Shown here piece by piece: positions 4,590 to 8,259 of a stretch of 21,866 bases of DNA. The DNA comes from an uncultured virus (IMG/VR IMGVR_UViG_3300008113_000157). Taxonomy: Duplodnaviria > Heunggongvirae > Uroviricota > Caudoviricetes. The stretch lies in the IMG/VR virus record IMGVR_UViG_3300008113_000157; one strand, written 5' to 3'. Position 1 is the first letter of the stretch. Every line of letters starts with the position of its first letter. The notes beneath the pieces are model-generated. The model worked only from the letters and a program-made list of their open reading frames with translations. It was not told the origin of the DNA and made no database searches. A program made the translations under genes and the position numbers.

Positions 4590-6652
4590 TGGCTAATGAA
4601 AAATTAACCGAAGAACAACTTCGGGCTATCCAAGCAATGGGAGCTTCCCTATCCACATTGGGAATAGGGCCTGCAACAATGCTTCCCTTTCAAGACTTGT
4701 TGCAATCAAACGCAATTTCAAAAATTAAACAACAAGAAGCAATGCGGATGTTTCCGCAAGCTGACTCAAATCTATTTGATTACACGCGCGGTGGAACACT
4801 GCCATATAAACAACCAATGTTAGCTAATGAAGTAATTCCATTAACTGAAAAAACTGCTAGTAGTCGAGTTTTTGATAAAGAGATCAAAACAAATTCTCCA
4901 TTAAGTGCAAGAGAAATTTATAGAAGTAGATCATCTCTTCCTGAGTATTTAAGTGGGCGTCCAGGTGCTCCTAGTCCTGAGTTAGGTTCTTTTGCAAACG
5001 CTATTAGCAATAAAACAATTTTTCCAGAAGGTGATATACAAGCAATTACTGTAACGCCTGGTCCAAACCCTGGTCGTTTTGCACAAGATTATGCAGAAAT
5101 CTTAGCAGATAAGTTAGGCAAAACATTAACTGAATATGAACAAGAACAATTAAACAGCGGAACTAATGTTACAAAACTACAAAACAAAATTAAAGCATTA
5201 ACTTCTAAAACACCAGGTACGGCTGGTTATATTTGGGGCAATGTAAAATATCCTCAATATAGTTATGCAGAAGGAAATTGGGGTCTTGGACAAAAACTAG
5301 CAGGAGAAAATCCTTCTATATATTTGTCAAGAATAAATGCTGATCCATCAAACGAAGCAAGGTATCTTTATACAGGTGATATTTTAAAAGGACAAGGAGG
5401 CATTGAGCCAAGGGTTCCTTTTAAACAATACGAAGATCTTGGTCCCGGTACAGGTCCCTCTTGGGGCATAGCTCCAAATAAAGACATCAGTTTTAGAAAA
5501 GATTTAATTGGTGCCAGGGGAGAATTAACAACAGGAGATTTGCAAGCACTGCTCGCTGAACGAGGATTGCCTTTTGAATATCAAGTAGAAGGTGATCGCT
5601 ATACAAGAAAAAAACCTGGATTTGTATTACGAGCCAACTTAGAAAAATTAGCTAACTCTGAAAGCATTAGTCCAAGCCAGGCCGCTGAAAAATACGCGCG
5701 TTTGATTCCAAATGTAGGTGAACCTGTAATACCTCCAACGGCTGCGGTTAGCGCAAGAGTAGGGGAGTTTCCAGAACAAGGGCAAATGGCTAGCCCATTT
5801 GGTCGCTTTGCCGCCAAAACAGATTTACGGCAAATTGGCATCTTACCGCCAGGGGATAAAGCTACCTATAGTCCTTTTACAGTAGATGAATTTACAAATG
5901 TATTTCAACCTGAAAATACAAGATACAATGCAAGTTCCTTAAAAGAAATAACCCCATCAAAGGTAGTTCCGGCATCACCTGGATCTTTATTTGATGAAGA
6001 CTTTATCGAAGGCAGTTACCAATTCAACATAAACAGAGATGTATTAAGACCTCAAGCTGCAAATAAACTCTTAAACAAAACAACTAAAACTTTAATTGAA
6101 CAAGCAAAACCAGTTAGAGCTATGGGTCTTGGTGGTTTAGCTACAGGTGGAGTTTTAACTGCAATGGATCCTGCCGTTATTGATGCTTTGTCTCGTGGTG
6201 ATTACCAACAAGCAGGGACAACTGCTGCATTAAACACTGCTATTGGTTCTGTTACAGGTGGCGCAACGGCTAAGGGTTTACAAGCCTTGCAAGCTGCTGG
6301 ATACGCAAGACCTGCTGCTGCAATTGGAACTGTTCTTCCTGCAGTTGGTGGTGTTCTTGGTGGAGTTGGTTTAGCTGAAACTGGTAAAGCTCTTAACCGT
6401 GCATATCGTGCACAAACAGGTAAAGATTTTCCAACCAGAAATCAACCTATACAACCTACTCCCTACACAGGGCCAACTCCTTCTATACAACCACGGATGG
6501 GCAAAGCTGTTTTAAATAACAGGCTTGTTGACGTACCTTATGGTTCTGTAGCAGGAACCAAAACAGTTGGTCGTCCTTGGTGGGATAAAGCTGGATCCGC
6601 ATTCCAGGGTTTACTAAATCGTTTTAATGCCGGCAGTATTGTTGGACGTTAA
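4586..6652 (+). CDS. large hypothetical protein with Gly/Ala-rich C-terminus (possible internal virion protein)
   Basis: 688-aa uninterrupted ORF coupled to the dps stop (ATG at 4589). A/T-rich N-terminal two-thirds and hydrophobic Gly/Ala helices near the C-terminus. Confidence 0.7.
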   Translation: MMANEKLTEEQLRAIQAMGASLSTLGIGPATMLPFQDLLQSNAISKIKQQEAMRMFPQADSNLFDYTRGGTLPYKQPMLANEVIPLTEKTASSRVFDKEIKTNSPLSAREIYRSRSSLPEYLSGRPGAPSPELGSFANAISNKTIFPEGDIQAITVTPGPNPGRFAQDYAEILADKLGKTLTEYEQEQLNSGTNVTKLQNKIKALTSKTPGTAGYIWGNVKYPQYSYAEGNWGLGQKLAGENPSIYLSRINADPSNEARYLYTGDILKGQGGIEPRVPFKQYEDLGPGTGPSWGIAPNKDISFRKDLIGARGELTTGDLQALLAERGLPFEYQVEGDRYTRKKPGFVLRANLEKLANSESISPSQAAEKYARLIPNVGEPVIPPTAAVSARVGEFPEQGQMASPFGRFAAKTDLRQIGILPPGDKATYSPFTVDEFTNVFQPENTRYNASSLKEITPSKVVPASPGSLFDEDFIEGSYQFNINRDVLRPQAANKLLNKTTKTLIEQAKPVRAMGLGGLATGGVLTAMDPAVIDALSRGDYQQAGTTAALNTAIGSVTGGATAKGLQALQAAGYARPAAAIGTVLPAVGGVLGGVGLAETGKALNRAYRAQTGKDFPTRNQPIQPTPYTGPTPSIQPRMGKAVLNNRLVDVPYGSVAGTKTVGRPWWDKAGSAFQGLLNRFNAGSIVGR

Positions 6653-6903
6653 CTAGTCCAGTGCTCAAGCCTGTGGCAGTTGCAGCAAAGCGGAATACAC
6701 TTCTCAATCTCTTGCTCAACCCTGCTCCAAGCGTAACCATGGTTAACCATGGATGAGATGTTATTGTCCTTGTCACCTATGTGGTGGAACTCAAGGACAC
6801 GATGATCATTCAGCCCACACTTCTTGCACTGCAAAGTCTTCTTGTACTCCAGAAGCTTTTTTCGATTCTTATCGATACGTTTTTTAGCAGTGCCCCAGGT
6901 CAC
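6649..6903 (-). CDS. small HNH endonuclease
   Basis: CKKCG...LEFHH...NNIS...CIPLCCNCHRLEH: Zn-binding CxxC pairs plus the HNH core. Confidence 0.8.
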   Translation of the reverse strand: MTWGTAKKRIDKNRKKLLEYKKTLQCKKCGLNDHRVLEFHHIGDKDNNISSMVNHGYAWSRVEQEIEKCIPLCCNCHRLEHWTS

Positions 6904-6943
6904 GTCTAGTTTTTGTGCACGTGTGCATATAATTTATCAGTTT

Positions 6944-6968
6944 TCTCAATAAACGTGGTTTATTGAGA
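6944..6968. repeat. perfect 11-bp inverted repeat (hairpin/operator) just 3' of the RNA array
   Basis: TCTCAATAAAC-gtg-GTTTATTGAGA. Confidence 0.7.
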
Positions 6969-6977
6969 TTCTTAATA

Positions 6978-7053
6978 GCACCTGGGTAGGAGTCGAACCT
7001 ACATCGTCCTGCAGCGGCAGTAACCGTCTTATCCAATTAGCTCGGACCAGGTG
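6978..7053 (-). ncRNA. tRNA-like RNA without a canonical anticodon arm
   Basis: Minus strand CACCTGG...GTAGG-TTCGACT-CCTAC-CCAGGTG-C gives a perfect 7-bp acceptor stem and T arm, with a D-loop-like AATTGGATA. The anticodon arm is only CTGC-CGCT-GCAG. Confidence 0.65.
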
Positions 7054-7054
7054 A

Positions 7055-7125
7055 TCGGGATGGAAGGTACTGCCCCTTCTCCTTTGCGTCCCAAACGCAA
7101 TGTGATACTTTTCTACTACATCCCG
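7055..7125 (-). tRNA. tRNA-Pro(UGG), atypical T- and D-loops
   Basis: CGGGATG/CATCCCG acceptor stem (C1:G72, A73 = Pro identity), anticodon arm TTGCG-TT TGG GA-CGCAA, T stem GAAGG/CCTTC with loop GGCAGTA. No encoded CCA. Confidence 0.8.
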
Positions 7126-7129
7126 AGTG

Positions 7130-7213
7130 ACCCCCTGGTTTGTGCATCATCCTGAAAACCATTTTGTTGACGTCAACAAAATGGTCTACGTATAGGAGCT
7201 AAGCATAAGGGGT
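7130..7213 (-). ncRNA. putative structured RNA (long rod-like hairpin) with a 28-bp perfect palindrome
   Basis: Nested pairings CCCCT/AGGGG, TGC/GCA and TCCT/AGGA enclose ACCATTTTGTTGAC|GTCAACAAAATGGT (7158-7185). No ORF in the track. Confidence 0.45.
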
Positions 7214-7220
7214 GTTGTTA

Positions 7221-7303
7221 ATAGATGGATGCAGTGTAACTGGCGTACCGACAATCGGGCTGTGAGTTAACCAGGCGTATCCAGACAGTGACTGCACCTC
7301 TAT
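7221..7303 (-). ncRNA. putative structured RNA (three-way junction)
   Basis: ATAGAGG-TGCAGT / ACTGCA-TCCATCTAT closing stem, CTGG/CCAG stem, inner hairpins CTG..CAG and CCGA-TTG-TCGG. Confidence 0.45.
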
Positions 7304-7330
7304 CTTGGGCTCTCCTTCTAGGCTATCTGC

Positions 7331-7960
7331 CTAACGAGTCACCCCCCACTTGGGGGCGTGTTCCACATCAAAGTAGCGTGTTGATACCTTGAAGTCTGGT
7401 GTCTTGAGGTTGTGATAACTCAATGATGGATCAACCATGCGACACCGATTGTTGGGATAAGCGCCAATTTGACCGTTGTCCAAAGCCACAATATTATGGG
7501 ATTTGTGCTCATCAGGAAACTCCGAAAAGTAAAAATCAGGTTCGTTCCGATGAGGATGATAATTGTCTACGGTAAATAAATATGTGCCCTTCATTACACC
7601 TGCGCTTCGTGTCAGGATTTCAAAACCCATGTTGAAGATTAAATTCTTTTCAACGATCGTAAGTCCATGGTCAAACCCATTCCAGAACTGAAGGTCTGTC
7701 AACTCCAAGTCAGGTGTAGGTTCTTTGGGTTTGTCTGGATAGTCTGAGTCCCATGCAAGAAACGCACTGATAGGAAGCTTGTCATACAACGCTCCGTACT
7801 CAGTCAAGTACGCTTCAAAATACAGTGCTCGACCCGTAAGTGATTTACAGGTGACCCAATAGCCAGGTGTGTACTCACCATGTCCTTTCTGAAGGTCGTA
7901 CAGATATTCCTTGCGGACCCATACTTTGATTGGTGGTACGTTGGCAACAAGAGTTGTCAC
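7331..7960 (-). CDS. conserved phage protein of unknown function (common in cyanophages)
   Basis: 209 aa, GTG start. Motifs VRKEYLYDLQKGHGE, GALYDKLPISAF, EHKSHNIVALDNGQ..YPNNR and PDFKV. Confidence 0.8.
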   Translation of the reverse strand: MTTLVANVPPIKVWVRKEYLYDLQKGHGEYTPGYWVTCKSLTGRALYFEAYLTEYGALYDKLPISAFLAWDSDYPDKPKEPTPDLELTDLQFWNGFDHGLTIVEKNLIFNMGFEILTRSAGVMKGTYLFTVDNYHPHRNEPDFYFSEFPDEHKSHNIVALDNGQIGAYPNNRCRMVDPSLSYHNLKTPDFKVSTRYFDVEHAPKWGVTR

Positions 7961-7987
7961 AAAAAATCCCGGTTGTTATACCGGGAT
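7961..7987 (-). terminator. intrinsic terminator-like hairpin
   Basis: Minus strand ATCCCGGT-ATAACA-ACCGGGAT followed by a T run. Confidence 0.7.
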
Positions 7988-8094
7988 CATAGCTTCCTTC
8001 TCACCCAACTTGTTGCTAAGCACTACGTCTGTAACGTGAAGGAGCTTTCGACTATTGGCTCCAGAGCGATATTGCTCTGTATGTCAGGATACCA

Positions 8095-8259
8095 TCATTT
8101 CTTCTTCTTTGCGGCTGCTTCCTTCTTCTTGGCAATCATCTCTTTAAACTTGTCGCGTGCAGCAGCTTGCTTGTCGGTACCACCTGCTTTGCCCTTGGGA
8201 GGTACGGCTTTACCCTTGGGAGGAACAGCTTTGCCTTTAGGCGGAACTGCTTTAGCCAT
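8095..8259 (-). CDS. 54-aa Lys/Ala/Pro-rich basic protein with 3x KAVPPKG repeat (histone-H1-like composition)
   Basis: Manual translation MAKAVPPKGKAVPPKGKAVPPKGKAGGTDKQAAARDKFKEMIAKKKEAAAKKKK*. The 21-bp repeats differ only at synonymous positions in this frame, and there is a TATAAT upstream. Absent from the ORF track. Confidence 0.8.
   Translation of the reverse strand: MAKAVPPKGKAVPPKGKAVPPKGKAGGTDKQAAARDKFKEMIAKKKEAAAKKKK

Follow-up and report, generated by a model that had tools for sequence, protein, structure and literature searches.

The tRNA region of phage T4 brings together a cluster of phage transfer RNA (tRNA) genes, small stable RNAs (species I and II), and a free-standing homing endonuclease gene; the T4 nuclease SegB is reported to cut the tRNA genes of related phages at T-arm sequence and to drive the inheritance of the region (PMC2330249). 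A similar association is found on the - strand of IMGVR_UViG_3300008113_000157, a stretch of 21,866 nucleotides (nt), hereafter "the window," which by its sequence is an S-EIVl-like freshwater cyanophage. At positions 6944 to 7344, five small structured RNA modules, two of them tRNA-shaped, follow one another in an array that ends in a hairpin and precedes an HNH gene. The array is unlike the T4 region in that its nuclease is HNH rather than GIY-YIG SegB, in that its RNAs differ, and in that, in some relatives, a variant tRNA with an altered T-loop lies inside the split target gene. Its tRNA-Pro and the adjacent tRNA-shaped RNA recall the Pro-Ser dimeric precursor that T4 is said to make.

Other described RNAs resemble parts of the array. 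GOLLD and ROOL, structured noncoding RNAs of phages and prophages, are reported as "often near tRNA islands" and of unknown function (bioRxiv 10.1101/2024.12.08.627333). They form cages and measure 500 to 800+ nt, compared to 38 to 93 nt for the array modules, and their Rfam models had no match in the window or in the relatives scanned. In the tRNA-linked small RNAs of MHV68 and in mascRNA, tRNA shapes with stunted anticodon arms form one chain with hairpin RNAs or long transcripts, from which RNase P and RNase Z free them. A tRNA-like unit in one relative of the window had a sub-threshold mascRNA match (26.9 versus 42.5 bits); unlike these eukaryotic RNAs, to which it has no sequence relation, the array belongs to a bacterial virus and its modules shuffle between genomes. 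Phage tRNAs are also reported to neutralize tRNA-cleaving defenses, namely, PARIS and retron effectors (PMC11464382, PMC11555353). Like those tRNAs, a non-standard phage tRNA could restore translation or escape a nuclease; unlike those decoding tRNAs, which were shown to rescue infection, the tRNA-like RNA described here is without an anticodon loop. Finally, an abiF-motif RNA is reported to neutralize the Clostridioides difficile toxin AbiF (Abi_2, HEPN) by direct binding (bioRxiv 10.1101/2025.04.15.648962), and an abiF small RNA has already been reported in cyanophage S-CREM1 (PMC9964418).

Read 5' to 3', the array consists of a hairpin, the "GAUAGAGG" scaffold, an abiF-like rod, tRNA-Pro(UGG), an anticodon-less tRNA-like RNA, and a closing hairpin. 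All six folds and the HNH gene lie on the - strand where an earlier note, made from the letters of the window, had placed them. We favor, as somewhat more probable than its alternatives taken together, the reading that five small RNA genes at 6944 to 7344 (-) are transcribed together, with tRNAs as punctuation; their products would be released by processing and may include an antitoxin mimic. The features of the array are as follows.

7307..7344, - strand: anticodon-arm-like hairpin; outer stem GGGU..CUC/GAG..GCCC, 5-bp stem, 7-nt loop CAGAUAG, then AAGGAG
7221..7304, - strand: "GAUAGAGG" scaffold RNA of the 80-nt class, the three-way junction of the earlier note; covariation in helix P1
7126..7218, - strand: rod, abiF-like with an expanded tip; fold-energy z of -3.83; 26 distinct family sequences; ends UCACU directly before tRNA-Pro
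7055..7125, - strand: tRNA-Pro(UGG) with a non-canonical elbow; Rfam tRNA RF00005, 42.3 bits (gathering 29), full-length 1-71
6978..7053, - strand: anticodon-less tRNA-like RNA; Rfam tRNA, 18.7 bits, E = 0.69, below gathering; starts 1 nt after tRNA-Pro
6944..6968, - strand: terminal 11-bp hairpin; fold-energy z of -8.70; AU-rich stem, then AAAACUGAUAAA

The array stands at the end of a - strand gene block, between a 209-amino-acid gene and an 84-amino-acid HNH gene. With the upstream 209-amino-acid protein as the query, 598 related stretches were found in viral contigs, and the best 80 of the 598 are the fetched loci. True copies from pattern scans were added (the tRNA-like RNA in 17 of 19 viral stretches, the junction in 47 of 49, the rod in 34, and the tRNA-like RNA in 69 of 70 metagenome stretches), and about 250 viral and metagenome stretches were compared in total (L numbers below). 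One viral record, G001, has all sampled words in common with the window. Among the 80 loci, the RNA island fills a variable gap of 1 to ~1,000 nt between the upstream gene and the HNH gene, and the modules of the window are found singly and in other orders in relatives.

Module families and compensatory change

The earlier note had described five self-contained folds tiling the - strand, to be checked by covariation of their stems in the intervals of relatives. Compensatory changes were found there, and the comparison showed each fold to be a real module with bounds of its own and its own RNA family, kept by such changes and recurring in different orders across the ~250 stretches. Fold energies against shuffles gave z scores of -3.47 for the hairpin at 7307 to 7344 (minimum free energy [MFE], -15.9), -3.83 for the rod at 7126 to 7213, -3.11 for tRNA-Pro, -1.90 for the tRNA-like RNA, and -2.96 for the whole 431 nt.

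Two of the modules had been called tRNA-shaped, and both are: 7055 to 7125 scores 42.3 bits, and 6978 to 7053, at 18.7 bits, has a covarying cloverleaf. The proposed check with Rfam covariance models and ARAGORN gave a divided result, in that Rfam matched tRNA-Pro, the tRNA-like RNA stayed sub-threshold, and ARAGORN found 0 tRNA genes in the window, missing both units. The acceptor and T arm of the tRNA-like RNA align with the Rfam tRNA model, and the middle does not. Its parts are a 7-bp acceptor with C1:G72 and discriminator C, a D arm whose loop is AAUUGGAUA, a canonical T arm, and a 4-bp central arm (CUGC/GCAG) that is closed in the window by the tetraloop CGCU. The central loops of the copies are CGCU, UGCU, CGUU, GGCU, CGAU, the 5-nt CGAUU, and one larger loop. 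None is the 7-nt anticodon loop of a tRNA, and the RNA therefore cannot decode.

Among 33 distinct sequences of the tRNA-like RNA, 94.3% of cells are paired, compared to 29 to 41% with partners slid, and 61 cells are changed on both sides, compared to 18.8 in shuffles (0/500 shuffles were as high). Acceptor pairs are changed on both sides in 1, 10, and 11 sequences, D-stem pairs in 7 and 15, and T-stem pairs in 9 and 8; the D stem consists of Watson-Crick pairs at columns 15-27 and 16-26. An MFE D-hairpin, UCCGA/UUGGA, had no both-side changes and was weakened by L190, L230, and L191; the stem 15-27/16-26 was adopted in its place. In 17/17 true viral copies, the RNA stands directly behind the 3' end of a tRNA-Pro, mostly at 1 nt and in a few rows at 2 nt. 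These tRNA-Pro partners are of four types, plus one 3' half; in metagenome stretches, the RNA also follows other modules. Pattern scans of one genome from each of 185,579 species gave no true match, which is no proof of cellular absence; matches in two Acidoferrales metagenome-assembled genomes were false, without acceptor and T-arm context. A second tRNA-like family (CGGUCGGUAGUCUAUUGG...) was seen at L007:3925-3998, in L028 and L021, and at L305:1300-1370, and ARAGORN called it "tRNA-Cys(ACA)" in two loci. A further recurrent module (GGGUGCAACAAGGAACGUUGCAUUAAAC...) had no Rfam match.

The tRNA-Pro at 7055 to 7125 departs from the canonical elbow (D-loop GG, T-loop UUCRANY): its T-loop is GGCAGUA, its D-loop AAAAGUA has no GG, its D-stem contains mismatches, and CCA is not encoded. 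The acceptor stem and anticodon arm are normal, with the anticodon loop UUUGGGA (U33 and a purine at 37) on a 5-bp stem kept by compensation. Five distinct versions include three fully compensated anticodon stems (UUGCG/CGCAA, CCGUC/GGCGG, and CUGCU/AGCAG) and a compensated A-U/G-C swap in the acceptor; the compensated stems indicate that selection maintains 7055 to 7125 as a tRNA. On the 80 loci, ARAGORN called tRNA-Pro(UGG) in 19, tRNA-Thr in 4, and odd types elsewhere. A 64-nt tRNA-shaped unit at L107:409-472 (-), 4 nt after an abiF RNA, has the loop CUCAUAG; its T-loop is non-canonical, which makes it a second case of an unusual elbow in a tRNA. The G001 record also carries a tRNA-Leu(UAA) gene outside the window (L001:1501-1576); a shortage of tRNA-Leu(UAA) is reported to make a marine Synechococcus resistant to cyanophage Syn9 (PMC11726456).

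In L028, L029, and L097, the variant tRNA-Pro and a 130-amino-acid HNH gene (phrog_4234, E = 8.8e-33) form a cassette that breaks into the anticodon loop of a canonical tRNA-Pro, whose 3' half comes after the HNH gene. The split gene lies at 4083-4640 in L028 and at 4300-4470 in L029. A group I intron between the halves was rejected, as Rfam scans of L028 and L029 gave tRNAs only. The arrangement resembles intron-less homing, and by analogy, the variant tRNA-Pro, with its different T-arm, may be a spare copy resistant to the HNH nuclease.

The broken tRNA-Pro halves in these three loci could also be taken to mean that the whole array is debris, that is, fragments of tRNA genes and degenerate copies left by repeated HNH cutting and repair and conserved only as the genomes are young. 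ARAGORN's misses of the variant tRNA-Pro and the tRNA-like RNA, the homology of the hairpin to the anticodon arm of a 70-nt tRNA-shaped gene, and a 91-nt deletion in the window itself agree with this explanation. We nevertheless regard debris as improbable, considering that helices in four modules are kept by compensatory double changes, that stems change while loops stay fixed, and that the same modules occur in unrelated cyanomyoviruses and in RNA-library contigs.

The scaffold RNA is laid out as GAUAGAGG, a 6-bp P1, CNCUG, a Y-shaped apical domain, YAC, P1', and UCCAUC. In 26 sequences, the six P1 pairs (columns 12-17/73-78) have both-side changes in 8, 11, 11, 4, 1, and 8 sequences, and 0 are broken; covariation is present at 6/6 pairs, and P1 takes six different helix sequences. 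Size classes of 37, 52, 63, and 80 nt share one frame and differ by apical inserts. The 63-nt class shows the hairpin motif of the window at its tip, and the apical domain of the 80-nt class is nearly invariant. A hairpin module precedes the scaffold in 10 contexts, as in the window; a rod or abiF form follows it in 19/51 contexts (one doubtful), and in many others, tRNAs follow directly.

The earlier note had seen no open reading frame (ORF) in the interval, which holds for real genes; mechanical ORFs of 50 and 41 amino acids (6884-7036 and 7037-7162) overlap the tRNAs. A 33-codon GTG frame across the junction and rod, read by eye, was discarded: it is not kept in relatives because its start codon lies within the covarying P1 helix. 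We find it scarcely credible that this frame or the 41- and 50-amino-acid ORFs encode small peptides. AAGGAG at 7311 to 7316 does resemble a ribosome-binding site, and the mechanical ORFs exist, but the GTG is missing from other versions of P1, AAGGAG is followed by a tRNA or by other modules in L014, L021, and L026, and the listed ORFs overlap the tRNA and the tRNA-like RNA.

The hairpin is represented by 25 distinct copies with eight stem versions, including the compensated UUAGG/CCUAG, CCAGG/CCUGG, and UUGGG/CCCAG. Its loops (CAGAUAG, CAAAUAG, CACAUAG, CAGACAG, and CUCAUAG) follow the pattern C-A-N-N-(U/C)-A-G, and its flanks are ACUCG and AAGGAG. In L113, L126, and L129, this arm recurs as the anticodon arm within a 70-nt tRNA-shaped gene, with the loop CUCAUAG or CAGAUAG; the hairpin is thus an isolated anticodon-arm look-alike. 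Rfam 15 gave no relevant match to the hairpin, scaffold, or tRNA-like RNA in the window region at E values of ≤10 and no match to them in 10 relatives at E values of ≤0.1. At E values of ≤1, the S-SZBM1 and DSL-LC02 loci returned only tRNAs, abiF, and unrelated sub-threshold rows (snoRNA, Plastid-ycf2, Tymo tRNA-like, and tRNA-Sec). No description of these three RNAs was found in the literature searched. The earlier note could assign none of the three non-tRNA modules to a family; this stands for the hairpin and the junction, which have no Rfam family, and not for the rod.

The rod and abiF RNA

Judging from its architecture, the rod is related to Rfam abiF RNA, though expanded and below threshold. 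A C5/G5 basal helix is followed by a UGC/GCA helix and, on the 3' side, the internal loop CAAACC; a palindromic hairpin of 14 bp forms the tip. The rod family (26 distinct sequences) falls into classes of 60 nt and ~94 nt that share the base ACACCCCCUAUGCYUAGCUC ... GAUGAYGCACAAACCWGGGGGUCACU and carry either the short tip CCGG-GACG-CCGG or a long palindromic hairpin. The tip stems are compensated (CCGG/CCGG, CUGG/CCAG, and CCAG/CUGG; GACGUC, GAUAUC, and GGCGCC), and the base is 95% paired and too conserved to covary.

Both the rod family and abiF RNA (RF03085; C. difficile RCd22) have a basal helix of 6 bp rich in C/G, a bulged A, a second helix of 3 bp, and, on the 3' side, the internal loop CAAA(C/U)C. 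The same elements appear in the abiF alignments of L234 and L181 (6-bp basal helix, bulged A, 3-bp helix, and 3' internal loop CAAAUC), and the window rod shares the abiF-architecture columns of its family. The RF03085 model (positions 1 to 37) matched the rods of L234, L181, and L175 end to end with 24.6, 24.5, and 23.8 bits (gathering, 37). Canonical 37-nt mini forms occupy the same position in the arrays of related contigs L107, L148, L111, and L202 and of S-SZBM1 and score 52.9 to 55.7 bits. Unlike abiF RNA, the rod has a hairpin insert of 23 nt or ~57 nt for the 11-nt loop, is present in a single copy with no adjacent abiF gene, and is fused to the 5' end of a tRNA.

No Abi_2 protein was found among the 35 ORFs of the window, and the Abi_2 family PF07751 was absent from G001, S-SZBM1, DSL-LC02, S-EIVl, and S-RIM8. 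The rod is thus not upstream of an abiF (Abi_2) toxin gene, and with no such gene in these five phage genomes, the phage RNA is an orphan, as expected of a mimic. A type III ToxI-like antitoxin was considered and rejected: there is a single rod, no direct-repeat family (self-matches are the palindrome only), and no toxin gene. The earlier note had guessed at antitoxin mimics among the three modules; for the rod only, kinship to abiF gives this guess substance and a concrete basis in homology from which we infer such a role. The main text of a 2017 account of 224 candidate structured RNAs (PMC5737381) does not mention abiF, tRNA-like RNAs, or cyanophages; its supplements may bear on the origin of the abiF motif. 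Stretches of 29 to 36 nt in Mycobacterium phages, including many cluster-mates, matched the abiF region of S-SZBM1 with 89 to 97% identity (E of ~1e-3 to 2e-3); these matches are mostly unannotated and may be abiF motifs.

The tip of the rod bears on another explanation, namely, that the elements work at the DNA level, as operator or promoter sites, targets of homing endonucleases, or sites of recombination, rather than as RNAs. The tip is a perfect 28-bp palindrome in which a TTGACG hexamer was read by eye, and changes among its variants are symmetrical, as for a dimer-binding site. Module borders are recombination break points, and SegB of T4 is reported to recognize the T-arm DNA of tRNA genes (PMC2330249). 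A DNA function appears very improbable all the same: the short tips CCGG-GACG-CCGG are not DNA palindromes and are still paired, G-U pairs at varying positions work on one strand only, covariation spans 60 to 70 nt in the scaffold and the tRNA-like RNA, and a promoter scan was empty on the - strand. In blastn searches of 50,697 phage records with the whole 416 nt and with the tRNA-like RNA alone, only short matches were returned. Matches of the palindrome to unrelated phages were put down to chance, and those of the tRNA-like RNA were generic T-arm words.

Module borders, RNA-library contigs, and spread among phages

The modules meet at fixed borders. The rod end UCACU is followed at offset 0 by a tRNA-shaped unit in 19/28 unique contexts, and in S-SZBM1, the abiF form stands 4 nt before tRNA-Ala. 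Of 24 listed sequencing runs, 20 hold part of the stretch, 10 of these recorded as RNA, from 13 studies, and module borders are bridged by RNA-library contigs from 4 studies. Record 1 of X1 equals 7135 to 7336 with 0 differences, X9 corresponds to 7143 to 7344, and X12 corresponds to 6971 to 7169; the contigs bridge the hairpin/junction/rod borders and the rod/tRNA-Pro/tRNA-like borders. That the flanking genes have no cover in X1, X3, and X9 was not taken as RNA enrichment. G-U pairs at covarying positions fit the - strand only. The earlier note proposed a single precursor cut by tRNA-processing enzymes. Fixed borders and border-bridging contigs fit this proposal, and the anatomy supports the polycistronic, tRNA-punctuated reading well; the processing itself we infer.

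The modules are also present in cultured phages, where they sit in the tRNA clusters of T4-like cyanomyoviruses unrelated to the window phage. The order in S-SZBM1 is tRNA-Pro, hairpin, tRNA-like unit, 52-nt scaffold, abiF, and tRNA-Ala, with the modules unannotated; in DSL-LC02, an HNH gene is followed by the hairpin, an unannotated tRNA-Pro, and then antitoxin genes. The hairpin adjoins tRNA-Pro in both, and scaffold-like matches were found in S-RIM8, S-RIM32, and S-SRM01. The DSL-LC02 tRNA (L306:1246-1319; Rfam, 68.6 bits; anticodon UGG [Pro] by eye) is unannotated in the public record and has the HNH gene on one side and two antitoxin-type genes on the other. At 1112 to 1197 of the same stretch is a tRNA-Sec-like unit that stays below threshold (45.7 versus 47 bits). 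Comparison of the arrays showed recombination of the families exactly at the borders of modules, across many phage genomes that include T4-like cyanomyoviruses. Such exchange among unrelated phages that share hosts points to a host-directed role.

It is possible, if doubtful, that the non-tRNA modules act in cis only, as leaders or spacers that stabilize the precursor or position RNase P or RNase E and are waste once released. The rod and the scaffold do stand directly 5' of tRNA-shaped units (the rod in 19/28 contexts, and several scaffolds before tRNA-Pro or tRNA-Ala), the scaffold would start the transcript in 12/39 contexts, where a 5' hairpin could protect the RNA, and no trans target is known. 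However, with a covarying stem, a mere spacer would not hold its 45-nt apical domain nearly invariant, and the rod shares its architecture with an RNA reported to bind a toxin (bioRxiv 10.1101/2025.04.15.648962). In many relatives, tRNA-Pro comes straight after the gene, or after other modules, and these leaders are absent. In L197 and L210, the tRNA-like RNA has a promoter-like context to itself, with a -10-like box before it. For the scaffold, a -10-like hexamer lies 4 to 10 nt before the first G in 12/39 upstream contexts.

Flanking features and proposed roles of the array

The genes on either side of the array are as follows.

7331..7960, - strand: conserved 209-amino-acid gene; 85% DNA identity to the S-EIVl "PurM" gene; phrog_3704, E = 5.9e-91
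6649..6903, - strand: 84-amino-acid HNH endonuclease gene, nuclease core only; phrog_2255, E = 3.8e-20, profile positions 96 to 171 of 211; phrog_3106, E = 4e-17

The 209-amino-acid gene matched no Pfam family, and its labels conflict ("PurM" in S-EIVl versus "ferredoxin" for PHROG 3704). The HNH protein is sub-threshold for Pfam HNH (E = 0.0024; 18.4 versus 21.4 bits), and an HNH homologue lies downstream in 51/80 loci (tblastn). Elsewhere in the window, a profile search of ORFs found a prim-pol/D5 helicase, AdoMet decarboxylase, a ferritin-like protein, and lysis proteins.

At the 7343/7344 junction, between two GTGGG repeats, the window is without 91 nt that are present in G001 and all relatives (compared with L002 and L004); the junction is common to 0 fetched loci, and the long form is present in 62. 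The loss, which may be a natural deletion or an assembly artifact, takes out the last 18 codons of the upstream gene and one hairpin element. The 3' end of that gene in the window is therefore a fusion, and the first hairpin of the array overlaps the upstream stop codon only because the 91 nt are missing. In relatives, a hairpin CCCC...GGGG, absent from the window, directly follows the stop codon (L004:3675-3705) and has a compensated CCCG/CGGG variant; its loop of pyrimidines, CUCUCUUU, complements the AAGGAGAG tail of the module that follows and so resembles an anti-Shine-Dalgarno sequence. Just upstream of the 209-amino-acid gene, 7965 to 7988 (-) holds a terminator-like hairpin and T-run; in L142, L132, and L169, this hairpin is followed instead by a -10 box and a scaffold RNA. 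The terminal hairpin at 6944 to 6968 is kept in relatives, with one compensated pair (A-U to G-C) and one mismatch in L005, and is the probable 3' end or stabilizer of the array.

Several results weigh against the reading of 6944 to 7344 as a co-transcribed array of small RNA genes that includes an abiF-related antitoxin mimic. The energy of the three-way junction (7221 to 7303) is unexceptional (z of -0.48), so the case for the folds rests on comparison with relatives; there, the inner helices of the scaffold never vary (almost no variation in a second pattern scan), and covariation in the rod base is not above shuffles (258/500), the search pattern having fixed one strand. The sequence set is largely close kin and pattern-collected, which inflates counts of conserved positions. 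The window rod gives no abiF match at E values of ≤10, even in a 141-nt search, and falls short of the 37-bit gathering score; G001 gives none either. The conserved 11-nt terminal loop of abiF (CUCUCAACGAU in the model consensus) is replaced in the rod, by an insert of 23 nt in the short class and of 55 to 57 nt in the long class, which includes the window. A sigma-70-like promoter scan of 6600 to 8100 found none on the - strand, and the terminal hairpin has no U-tract on that strand, being terminator-like on the + strand only and thus no intrinsic terminator of the array. Finally, the RNA-library evidence consists of assembled contigs, which carry neither ends nor strand, and DNA may be present in RNA libraries.

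If the array is a tRNA-punctuated precursor, host RNase P would cut at the 5' ends of the tRNA-shaped units and would thereby release the upstream RNAs with defined 3' ends: the rod would end in ...GGGGGUCACU, and tRNA-Pro would keep a 1-nt trailer. Trimming of 3' ends and CCA addition would then complete the tRNA-shaped RNAs. On the favored reading, the array is a small-RNA operon, probably with counter-defense roles. The rod could bind a host HEPN toxin of the AbiF/Abi_2 type and so serve as an orphan mimic of an antitoxin, and the variant tRNA-Pro could provide proline decoding from a copy that escapes the HNH nuclease splitting the canonical gene and perhaps also a host tRNA nuclease. The tRNA-like RNA and the hairpin may be non-decoding mimics of tRNA parts. 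More tentatively, the whole may be an RNA-only counter-defense island in which the rod disarms a host HEPN abortive-infection toxin, the hairpin and the tRNA-like RNA divert host enzymes whose targets for cutting or modification are the anticodon loops or acceptor ends of tRNAs, and the tRNA-Pro is a nuclease-proof replacement, all cut by host RNase P from a single transcript and spread among unrelated cyanophages as HNH-homed cassettes; we think this fuller version rather unlikely.

The structures are real, and most are undescribed. Rfam 15 lacks at least three of their families, namely, the GAUAGAGG scaffold, the tRNA-like RNA without an anticodon, and the anticodon-arm hairpin, and its abiF model fails to pick up the rod, an expanded form of that antitoxin RNA. 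The variant tRNA-Pro escapes standard tRNA finders, and at least one public phage record (L306) is without its tRNA-Pro annotation. Cultured phages carry the same modules without annotation, so that these ideas are open to laboratory tests: S-SZBM1 and S-CREM1, isolated on Synechococcus sp. CB0101, have the hairpin, a tRNA-like unit, the 52-nt scaffold, and abiF beside tRNAs, and DSL-LC02 and S-RIM8 come from other Synechococcus hosts. For cyanophage tRNA islands, the array suggests an organizing rule in which small RNAs are joined end to end with tRNA-shaped units and RNase P could set their ends. Cas13 is described as having arisen from toxins of the AbiF type that have RNA antidotes (bioRxiv 10.1101/2025.04.15.648962), and a phage-borne orphan abiF RNA, if true, would be a natural inhibitor of AbiF-type systems.

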